A stretch of 64,000 nucleotides of DNA, from UHGV virus genome UHGV-2202118. One strand, written 5' to 3'. Every line of letters begins with the position of its first letter. Position 1 is the first letter of the stretch. Below, one piece after another: positions 49,569 through 50,021 of this stretch. The translations under genes were made by a program, and so were the position numbers. Origin of the DNA: a virus. The notes beneath the pieces were generated by a model. It was not told the origin of the DNA. It worked only from the letters and a program-made list of their open reading frames with translations, and searched no databases.

Positions 49569-50021
49569 TTAAATCAAATGCCTTGAGAATTGACTGTGGC
49601 AATTTGGACATAAGAACCGAAGATTCTCTTTTCTATCATCTAACCAGTTCTCATTAATGTGGTCAACATCAAGAGTTAGAGGGTTGCCCAACCACTCCGG
49701 TAACTGACCGCATTTAGAGCATTTGTATTCGATACCAGATGCTATTAAAGCTCTTCTTAGTTGTGAAGACCTTGCTCTTTCACCAGATTCACGTAGAATT
49801 AAGATTTCTTCAGGCTTTCTTTTTGGTACAGTTTTAATCTTACCAGCCTTTTGTCCGAGGAAATGAGAAGTGTCTATTTCAAACTTCTCTATAACACGCT
49901 TTAGATGTGACTGAGAACCACCTGATGGTTTTCTCCCAAGCTTTATAAGCACTTCTCTGAATGATACTGAACCCTTTACTAAAGGTTCAAGAATATCTTT
50001 AGTCAAACTGCTACGTGCCAT
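49569..50021 (-). CDS. HNH endonuclease embedded in tRNA array
   Basis: 150 aa; CSKCGQ...HINENWLDDRKENLRFLCPNCHSQ HNH/zinc motif; GGGAG RBS. Confidence 0.7.
   Translation of the reverse strand: MARSSLTKDILEPLVKGSVSFREVLIKLGRKPSGGSQSHLKRVIEKFEIDTSHFLGQKAGKIKTVPKRKPEEILILRESGERARSSQLRRALIASGIEYKCSKCGQLPEWLGNPLTLDVDHINENWLDDRKENLRFLCPNCHSQFSRHLI

Follow-up and report, generated by a model that had tools for sequence, protein, structure and literature searches.

Endonuclease genes inside phage tRNA clusters are already known, namely those of SegB, of the T5 F-Tfl enzymes, and of mycobacteriophage arrays. The T4 enzyme SegB cleaves tRNA genes and drives the inheritance of the tRNA region (PMC2330249). 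It recognises a generic T-arm motif of many tRNA genes and its association with tRNA shows no isotype bias (PMC2330249, PMC13096335), and a benefit to its carrier has recently been shown (PMC13096335). It has been proposed that segB loses its stop codon through tRNA processing and that both segB and the T5 enzymes are translated from a tRNA precursor (PMC2330249). The tRNA region of T5 encodes the HNH endonucleases hegA, hegC, and hegD (F-TflI, II, and IV; Akulenko et al. 2004, cited in PMC2330249). HNH genes have been described as the commonest protein-coding genes of tRNA array units in mycobacteriophages and mycobacteria, where they were proposed to spread and diversify tRNA repertoires (Pope et al. 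2014, as cited; PMC5966550, PMC6409571). Here we analyse a 150-aa HNH endonuclease gene (positions 49569–50021, minus strand) that lies inside the tRNA array of a 64,000-nt stretch of the virus genome UHGV-2202118, hereafter the window, to which all window coordinates refer. It quite probably encodes a free-standing HNH homing endonuclease of a large, previously unnamed family (PHROG 10822), whose niche would be the 5′ edge of tRNA-Leu genes, mainly those with the anticodon UAG.

Compared with these systems, the window gene resembles segB of T4 and T6 in being a free-standing endonuclease gene of a phage tRNA cluster that is missing from close relatives, in abutting the downstream tRNA gene, and in belonging to a family statistically associated with tRNA genes. 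By analogy, it may also share the role of SegB, which targets tRNA gene DNA and drives preferential inheritance of the region. SegB is, however, a GIY-YIG enzyme without sequence relation to the window protein, which makes the latter an analogue and not a member of that family, and the HNH family differs further in being tied to tRNA-Leu, including lone tRNA-Leu genes in bacterial chromosomes. With the T5 heg genes it has in common that HNH enzymes are encoded among tRNA genes. The geometry of ORF (open reading frame) and tRNA is even the same for hegD (positions 4398–4979 of the T5 locus L085), which overlaps the 5′ end of tRNA-Gln2, annotated as a pseudogene, by 23 nt, and for hegC (6023–6607), which overlaps that of tRNA-Ser2 by 14 nt, but both belong to a different HNH family (HNH_3/NUMOD4 type). 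The HNH core of hegA is 34% identical to the window protein over 71 aa (E = 3e-12), but this core alone aligns: hegA has another N-terminus, a long C-terminal extension, and no tRNA downstream, so that homology does not extend to the whole protein. Unlike the window gene, none of the three precedes a tRNA-Leu. The reports on mycobacterial and mycobacteriophage arrays, at the level of the descriptions compared here, mention neither an isotype-specific position nor an allele replacement, in contrast with the window family. To judge by the searched literature, three elements are new: an isotype-specific linkage to tRNA-Leu across the family, in phages as well as bacteria; the replacement of tRNA-Leu alleles; and a tRNA-derived ribosome-binding site (RBS). 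For the HNH/tRNA-Leu linkage, a search of incomplete coverage found no description.

An intact HNH endonuclease gene in a phage tRNA array

The window is a segment of a Felixounavirus-like phage (Ounavirinae), and its tRNA region matches 331 phage records at 85–98% identity, mostly FelixO1-like phages of Escherichia, Salmonella, and Shigella. ARAGORN, in agreement with Rfam, detected 15 tRNA genes between positions 49245 and 52296, all on the minus strand. The HNH ORF, which starts with ATG, has the same orientation and is placed between tRNA-Ser(UGA) upstream (50291–50380, minus strand, ARAGORN) and tRNA-Leu(UAG) downstream (49491–49567, minus strand). The latter, which we call allele A, is a 77-nt class I-like tRNA with a short variable loop and A73 (Rfam tRNA model, 57.3 bits), and a single nucleotide separates its 5′ end from the TAA stop codon of the ORF. 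A GGAG motif is found 8 nt 5′ of the ATG. A first-pass annotation of the window had described this gene correctly as a 150-aa HNH/zinc-ribbon endonuclease inserted between tRNA blocks, on their strand and with its own RBS. It had overlooked the origin of this RBS in a tRNA-Leu remnant, the tie to a switch of tRNA-Leu alleles, and the tRNA-Leu linkage of the whole protein family. Its expectations of a presence/absence polymorphism and of signs of movement held as well, whereas its proposal of an insertion scar in the adjacent spacer did not, and that of co-option for RNA processing found no support.

The protein combines a helical, DNA-binding-like N-terminus (approximately residues 8–46) with a C-terminal HNH domain containing two CxxC pairs. 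It matches PF01844 over residues 101–144 (Pfam, E = 7.6e-5, 23.2 bits against a cutoff of 21.4) and, over residues 2–149, phrog_10822 'HNH endonuclease' (profile positions 4–151 of 245, E = 4.4e-66). An NCBIfam search gave no useful match, and a GIY-YIG domain was absent among the Pfam and PHROGs matches. The relatives of the gene are labelled in GenBank just as 'HNH endonuclease' or 'hypothetical protein', and there are no paralogues elsewhere in the window. Since a protein database search retrieved at least 567 homologous protein clusters, nearly all of about 150 aa, the ORF is real far beyond chance. All 29 family-invariant residues of a 62-sequence alignment including the window protein are kept in it, among them D118, D120, the catalytic His/Asn/His residues (H121, N133, and H142), and the zinc-binding CxxC pairs (C101/C104 and C138/C141). 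In an AF2 model (pLDDT 89), helices 8–16, 21–27, and 36–46 form a small N-terminal domain, and strands 118–121 and 134–137 followed by helix 139–146 form the beta-beta-alpha metal fold. The top PDB matches retrieved by Foldseek are HNH domains (McrA 6ghc, E = 1e-3, Cas5-HNH, and Cap5). The N-terminal domain, which has weak matches (E ~1) to helix-turn-helix domains of the NarL/LiaR/LysR type, looks DNA-binding-like in the model and is assigned to no named family. A modular layout of nuclease and DNA-binding parts is typical of phage homing enzymes. In one of them, the intron-encoded I-HmuI, the order of the domains is opposite to that of the window protein; this HNH nicking homing endonuclease (PDB 1u3e) shares the HNH catalytic motif and is a weak structural match (Foldseek E = 1.2).

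Among nine Ounavirinae HNH copies, dN/dS ranges from 0.02 to 0.15 at dS values of up to 0.75, and the function of the protein has therefore been kept for a long time. On sequence evidence, the gene is an intact HNH DNA endonuclease gene under purifying selection.

Three alleles of the tRNA-Leu(UAG) site and a tRNA-derived ribosome-binding site

Three alleles occur at this site in Ounavirinae (sense strand, slashes marking junctions). Allele B, of FelixO1 type, reads ...AAAAGATTTAAT/GGGAGATTGATGGTAATTGG... and contains a 78-nt tRNA-Leu(UAG). The HNH-less allele A, of fjerdesal/wV8/Moogle type, reads ...AAAAGATTTAAT/GCACCTATAGCCC... and contains a 77-nt tRNA-Leu(UAG) that is ~58% identical to that of B. 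The window and all other carriers have the allele A+HNH, ...AAAAGATTTAAT/GGGAGATTGA/CAT ATG...HNH...TTG ATT TAA T/GCACCTATAGCCC.... Junction probes detected B in 139 records, the exact empty A in 70, and A+HNH in 10; B is present in Felixounavirus and Suspvirus (SUSP2), A in Felixounavirus and Mooglevirus, and A+HNH in all three genera.

The Shine-Dalgarno region of the HNH ORF, GGGAGATTGA (50025–50034, minus strand), is identical to nucleotides 1–10 of the tRNA-Leu(UAG)-B of FelixO1-type phages, an identity that marks it as an orphan 5′ remnant of the B gene. The HNH-bearing phage pSJ21 matches the B-allele probe at 100% over the first 41 nt and stops doing so exactly after the 10-nt remnant. 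Because the RBS of the HNH gene corresponds to the beginning of tRNA-Leu-B, HNH and tRNA-Leu-A probably replaced tRNA-Leu-B in Ounavirinae. The A allele of tRNA-Leu(UAG) accompanies every Ounavirinae HNH copy examined. A 9-nt direct repeat, GATTTAATG, is present on both sides of the insertion: its upstream copy (50034–50042, minus strand) consists of the 8-nt tRNA leader and G1 of the tRNA, and its downstream copy (49567–49575, minus strand) is made up of the last ORF codons (TTG ATT TAA), T, and G1 of tRNA-Leu. The segment between the two repeats is exactly what the HNH-less A allele is missing. The nearest outgroups beyond Ounavirinae, two proteins 72% and 70% identical encoded on metagenomic contigs with different tRNA orders, also lie 1 nt upstream of A-like tRNA-Leu(UAG) genes, and one of these ORFs ends in ...AATTTAAT/GCACCTATAGCCCAATTGG. 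We also considered insertion inside the partner tRNA, leaving an orphan 5′ fragment, as a general rule of the family and rejected it: an upstream match of at least 9/10 to nucleotides 1–10 of the partner occurs in only 1 of 121 loci, and the orphan fragment of the window comes from the other allele.

Phages of the genus Otagovirus provide a replicate of this situation. The Pseudomonas phage phiPsa347 encodes a 58% identical homologue whose stop codon is located within the next tRNA-Leu(UAG). In phiPsa374 and phiPsa300, with flanks ~99% identical to those of phiPsa347, HNH is missing and the tRNA-Leu(UAG) is a different one, sequence identity with phiPsa347 returning exactly at the 3′ end of the tRNA. 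Here too, independently of Ounavirinae, the tRNA-Leu allele is a different one where the nuclease is present.

A rare insertion polymorphism discordant with its flanks

HNH copies at least 90% identical were found by tblastn in 10 phage records only: ECML-1, SP22, and pSJ21 in Felixounavirus, Michonne (two records) and Maleficent in Mooglevirus, and mistaenkt, PC79-13, EcSzw-2, and EcSzw_1, of which the three fetched are Suspvirus. A 300-nt empty-site probe matched 254 records, 244 of them over at least 80% of its length, and in all 60 rows sampled along the ranking the match was a single contiguous piece. The carriers represent about 4% of the site-matching Ounavirinae records (10/254), and the insertion point is identical in all those fetched, whether Felixounavirus, Mooglevirus, or Suspvirus. 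Comparison of the tRNA arrays of relatives, the check suggested by the first-pass annotation, thereby reveals a polymorphic and not a uniformly present gene.

The HNH copy of mistaenkt, a Suspvirus, is 95.1% identical to that of the window (dS 0.17) with adjacent spacers at 86.0%, whereas it is 89.0% identical to that of its genus-mate EcSzw-2 (dS 0.55) with spacers at 95.0%. In these few genomes, the history of the gene is incongruent with that of its flanks: the mistaenkt HNH groups with the Felixounavirus copies and the flanks group with EcSzw-2. The HNH gene is an insertion polymorphism with gene/flank phylogenetic discordance, a sign of horizontal movement.

A protein family linked to tRNA-Leu genes in phages and bacteria

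The 21 loci of full-length homologues examined first, 19 of them from IMG/VR and the others from phiPsa347 and Vibrio phage D69, are all found in tRNA arrays and on the tRNA strand, and none of 61 loci matching the HNH core only has any tRNA within 3 kb. Contigs of further database proteins display the same ORF/tRNA geometry, in two cases with a tRNA-Leu that ARAGORN had overlooked. We pooled phage and metagenome sequences into 92 protein clusters (90% identity), including 80 metagenome loci. A tRNA-Leu lies within 80 nt of the ORF end in 50 of these clusters (tRNA-Leu(UAG) in 41), the next tRNA within 350 nt is a tRNA-Leu in 61, and tRNA-Leu is the sole tRNA of the locus in 27. A scan of one genome per bacterial species yielded 524 confirmed matches. 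In the best 80 loci, which were analysed, the next downstream tRNA on the same strand is a tRNA-Leu in 74 (58 UAG, 15 GAG, and 1 AAG), mostly with no other tRNA close by. Among the hosts are Streptomyces, Streptosporangium, Nonomuraea, Microbispora, Rhodococcus, Acidobacteria, Planctomycetota, and Nostoc/Calothrix, and the gene is frequently on a megabase contig. Such lone tRNA-Leu partners across phage and bacterial loci imply that the association is with tRNA-Leu genes and not with arrays as such. An entire HNH family, comprising at least 567 protein clusters and matched in the genomes of over 500 bacterial species, is linked to a single tRNA identity, that of leucine, mostly UAG. Its presence goes together, in two phage groups, with a replaced resident tRNA-Leu gene.

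Across the family, the end of the ORF and the 5′ end of the tRNA abut or overlap. The modal overlap of −10, seen in 36 of 121 loci, was discounted as a sign of regulation, since positions U8-R9-R10 of tRNAs read TGA or TAG and the frequency is close to that of one reading frame in three.

Canonical bacterial tRNA-Leu is class II. Among the 121 partner tRNAs, 73 are class I-like (at most 79 nt) with the anticodon UAG; their lengths range from 74 to 79 nt, as in the window (49491–49567) and in contigs L100 (2438–2515) and L194 (1950–2023). Three cloverleaves inspected, from one actinomycete, one phage-like contig, and the window, have a variable loop of 4–5 nt and A73, and eight partner tRNAs scored 36–57 bits against the Rfam tRNA model. 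The HNH family draws attention to a class I tRNA that is widespread and, by its anticodon, a putative leucine tRNA.

Some of these loci have further peculiarities. Contigs L102 and L103 encode an identical HNH protein (P0059), followed in L103 by an intact tRNA-Leu(UAG) and in L102 (~2453–2560) by a tRNA that unrelated sequence interrupts behind the anticodon stem, perhaps as an insertion or because the tRNA is a hybrid. In the tRNA array of a 108-kb metagenomic phage contig (L098), a GOLLD RNA (Rfam RF02032, 210 bits, positions 695–1077) is situated ~0.9 kb upstream of the HNH homologue.

Proposed mechanism and alternative explanations

Homing on tRNA-Leu genes is suggested by an insertion site that hugs the 5′ end of the tRNA and by the fact that the tRNA-Leu of carriers differs from that of the commonest non-carriers. 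This difference between the HNH+ tRNA-Leu(UAG) and the commonest HNH− allele, seen in two phage groups, is also an indirect hint of allele resistance. The enzyme would nick or cut the tRNA-Leu(UAG) genes of genomes without HNH, with a break or junction near tRNA nucleotides 10/11, as the B remnant suggests. Recombinational repair from an HNH+ genome would then copy in both HNH and a divergent, presumably cleavage-resistant tRNA-Leu(UAG). A cassette of HNH and tRNA-Leu-A would in this way have entered the Ounavirinae array, replacing tRNA-Leu-B from nucleotide 11 to the 3′ end, and would later have passed between genera through recombination. The likely order of alleles in Ounavirinae is B, then A+HNH, then A, the empty A allele having most likely arisen when a deletion between the 9-nt repeats removed the nuclease gene or, alternatively, through a separate replacement of the tRNA only. 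No promoter of its own was found close upstream of HNH, strong sigma-70-like sites being located at 52443–52415, 52352–52323, and 50956–50928. The gene is probably translated from the polycistronic tRNA precursor, and tRNA processing would set the 3′ end of the mRNA at the stop codon. The window stop codon would survive RNase P cleavage by 1 nt; in many relatives it would not.

If the enzyme does target tRNA-Leu genes, this would explain the turnover of alleles and the mosaicism of phage tRNA arrays. It would also provide a natural and simple example of a selfish nuclease equipped with an immune copy of its own essential target, as well as a compact 150-aa sequence-specific nuclease with a predictable target, for which the phages FelixO1, wV8, ECML-1, SP22, and Michonne are available.

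Several observations weigh against this homing scenario. The position of the target, the kind of cut (nick or double-strand break), and the resistance of allele A are points that we infer from sequence. In Otagovirus, the HNH-linked tRNA is B-like and replaced an A-like one, the opposite of Ounavirinae, so that specificities must differ between subclades. Other tRNA isotypes abut the ORF in 10 of the 92 clusters and no tRNA occurs within 350 nt in 13. Although the tRNA-Leu allele changes along with the HNH gene, the polymorphisms of the spacers do not follow the allele: the window spacer is 97.7% identical to that of the B-type FelixO1, and flanking spacers do not co-vary with allele type. Co-conversion tracts must therefore be short or erased, and ordinary recombination could also shuffle the alleles. 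Finally, the strength of purifying selection and the persistence of the gene in the chromosomes of entire actinomycete orders might reflect a function that benefits the host and not pure selfishness.

It is conceivable, though on balance doubtful, that the nuclease and the tRNA gene that follows it form a two-gene mobile module, a 'tRNA gene-replacement drive'. HNH would disable the resident tRNA-Leu(UAG), and repair would install the nuclease together with a divergent, resistant tRNA(UAG), often of class I. Such a module would move among tailed phages and bacterial chromosomes, those of Actinomycetes, Acidobacteria, Planctomycetes, and cyanobacteria. At shallow depth, HNH subclades co-vary with tRNA type. 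Across lineages, partner tRNA-Leu genes share 66.5% identity compared with ~65% for other tRNAs, which counts against the homing scenario as well; since the partners are not more conserved, long-range co-transfer of nuclease and tRNA is not shown globally, and we discarded the idea that the two travel together at all depths.

We regard as unlikely that the protein is a domesticated beneficial factor of the tRNA region, comparable to SegB in T6, whose breaks in tRNA genes promote recombination, amplification, and remodelling of the array and may help against tRNA-targeting host defences. Low dN/dS (0.02–0.15 over dS of up to 0.75) is what such a factor would show, and a role of this kind was demonstrated for the tRNA-associated homing endonuclease SegB in a 2026 study (PMC13096335). 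The window array itself bears a deletion by tRNA-tRNA recombination (the Gly/Cys chimera at 49245–49319), and the arrays of relatives are hotspots of indels and of other endonuclease genes. However, 96% of relatives do without the gene, and array deletions are also observed in the HNH-less phages ESCO45/50/56 and KEP2. Array remodelling predicts neither the strict tie to one isotype nor the lone tRNA-Leu partners of bacteria, and a benefit would be compatible with homing and not exclusive of it.

An ordinary accessory gene, ancestral to Ounavirinae, vertically inherited and lost many times, with tRNA-Leu as an accidental neighbour and an unrelated job such as packaging or recombination, is more improbable still. 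HNH proteins beside terminases are known packaging cofactors, and a terminase gene lies ~750 nt from the end of the tRNA array. The flanks are genus-specific, and the large dS among the three HNH sublineages (0.5–0.75) makes this an old gene within Ounavirinae. Yet gene and flanks are discordant between Suspvirus and Felixounavirus copies, the B-tRNA remnant and the precise empty alleles fit poorly with vertical descent, and the same micro-synteny recurs in Otagovirus, a Vibrio jumbo phage, metagenomic phages, and bacteria with unrelated backbones. An essential role in packaging is ruled out, since most relatives do not have the gene.

Action on RNA, or coupling to the neighbouring tRNA as a two-component functional module (processing of the precursor, or binding or use of a class I tRNA(UAG)), is very improbable: it would account for the abutting or overlapping ends across the family, the 73 of 121 partners that are atypical class I tRNAs with a leucine anticodon, and the HNH/tRNA pairs that stand alone in many genomes, but the protein, of only 150 aa, has the make-up of a DNA endonuclease (helical DNA-binding-like N-terminus and McrA-like HNH), arrays without the gene have the same tRNAs, and the modal overlap is close to chance, so that the earlier suggestion of co-option for RNA processing is unsupported, most relatives keeping the same array without a gene whose product resembles a DNA binder and DNA nuclease.

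A conserved spacer and other features of the array

The sequence between tRNA-Ser(UGA) and the insertion point (50043–50290, minus strand) lies outside the insertion and is present in HNH-less phages, with an identity of 97.7% in FelixO1 and 89% in fjerdesal, both Felixounavirus, and 81% in Citrobacter phage Moogle. This conservation rejects the reading of the spacer (50040–50290) as an insertion scar and identifies it as a conserved array element. It contains a 107-nt core (50110–50216, minus strand), invariant or nearly so across Felixounavirus, Mooglevirus, and Suspvirus, with more variable flanks. The core ends in a hairpin, AAAGACC/GGTCTTT (50117–50135), and a U-run; phages share the stem and vary in the loop, and the hairpin falls short of terminator criteria. 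Rfam recognised no family in the spacer or region, only sub-threshold noise (for example, MIR473 and Plastid-ycf2 on tRNA antisense). The core is possibly a small stable RNA or an attenuator, like the stable RNAs of T4 and T5.

Other ORFs of Ounavirinae arrays are likewise located directly 5′ of tRNA genes (Thr, Asp, and Ile): 1062–1409 and 2792–3205 in SP22 (L087), 296–790 and 2588–3001 in FelixO1 (L093), 1–331 in pSJ21 (L088), and 1–197 in mistaenkt (L089). Those of SP22, pSJ21, and mistaenkt carry an endonuclease annotation; those of FelixO1 have none, and its ORF97 overlaps tRNA-Ile by 7 nt. Such genes seem, in general, to settle at the 5′ edge of tRNA genes.

The 'tRNA-Gly(UCC)' of the window (49245–49319, minus strand) is a chimera, made up of 58 nt of tRNA-Gly at its 5′ side and the end of a tRNA-Cys at its 3′ side, with the crossover in the T-arm (GGGTTCGA) and two resulting mismatches in the acceptor stem. 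The event (window 49245–49319 and 49023–49244) removed ~2.3 kb that fjerdesal possesses, comprising 12 tRNA genes and 2 ORFs. Among 251 matching records, KEP2 is the only one with a similar contiguous chimera junction.

At the border of the window array, a gene for a DUF2828/vWFA-type protein is found at 52462–53877 (minus strand). The HNH region has a neighbour of this type also in distant contigs, from Klebsiella and metagenomes, that encode HNH homologues (L100, 1–225; L102, 2805–4196), which points to conservation of the array neighbourhood across a broader group of phages.

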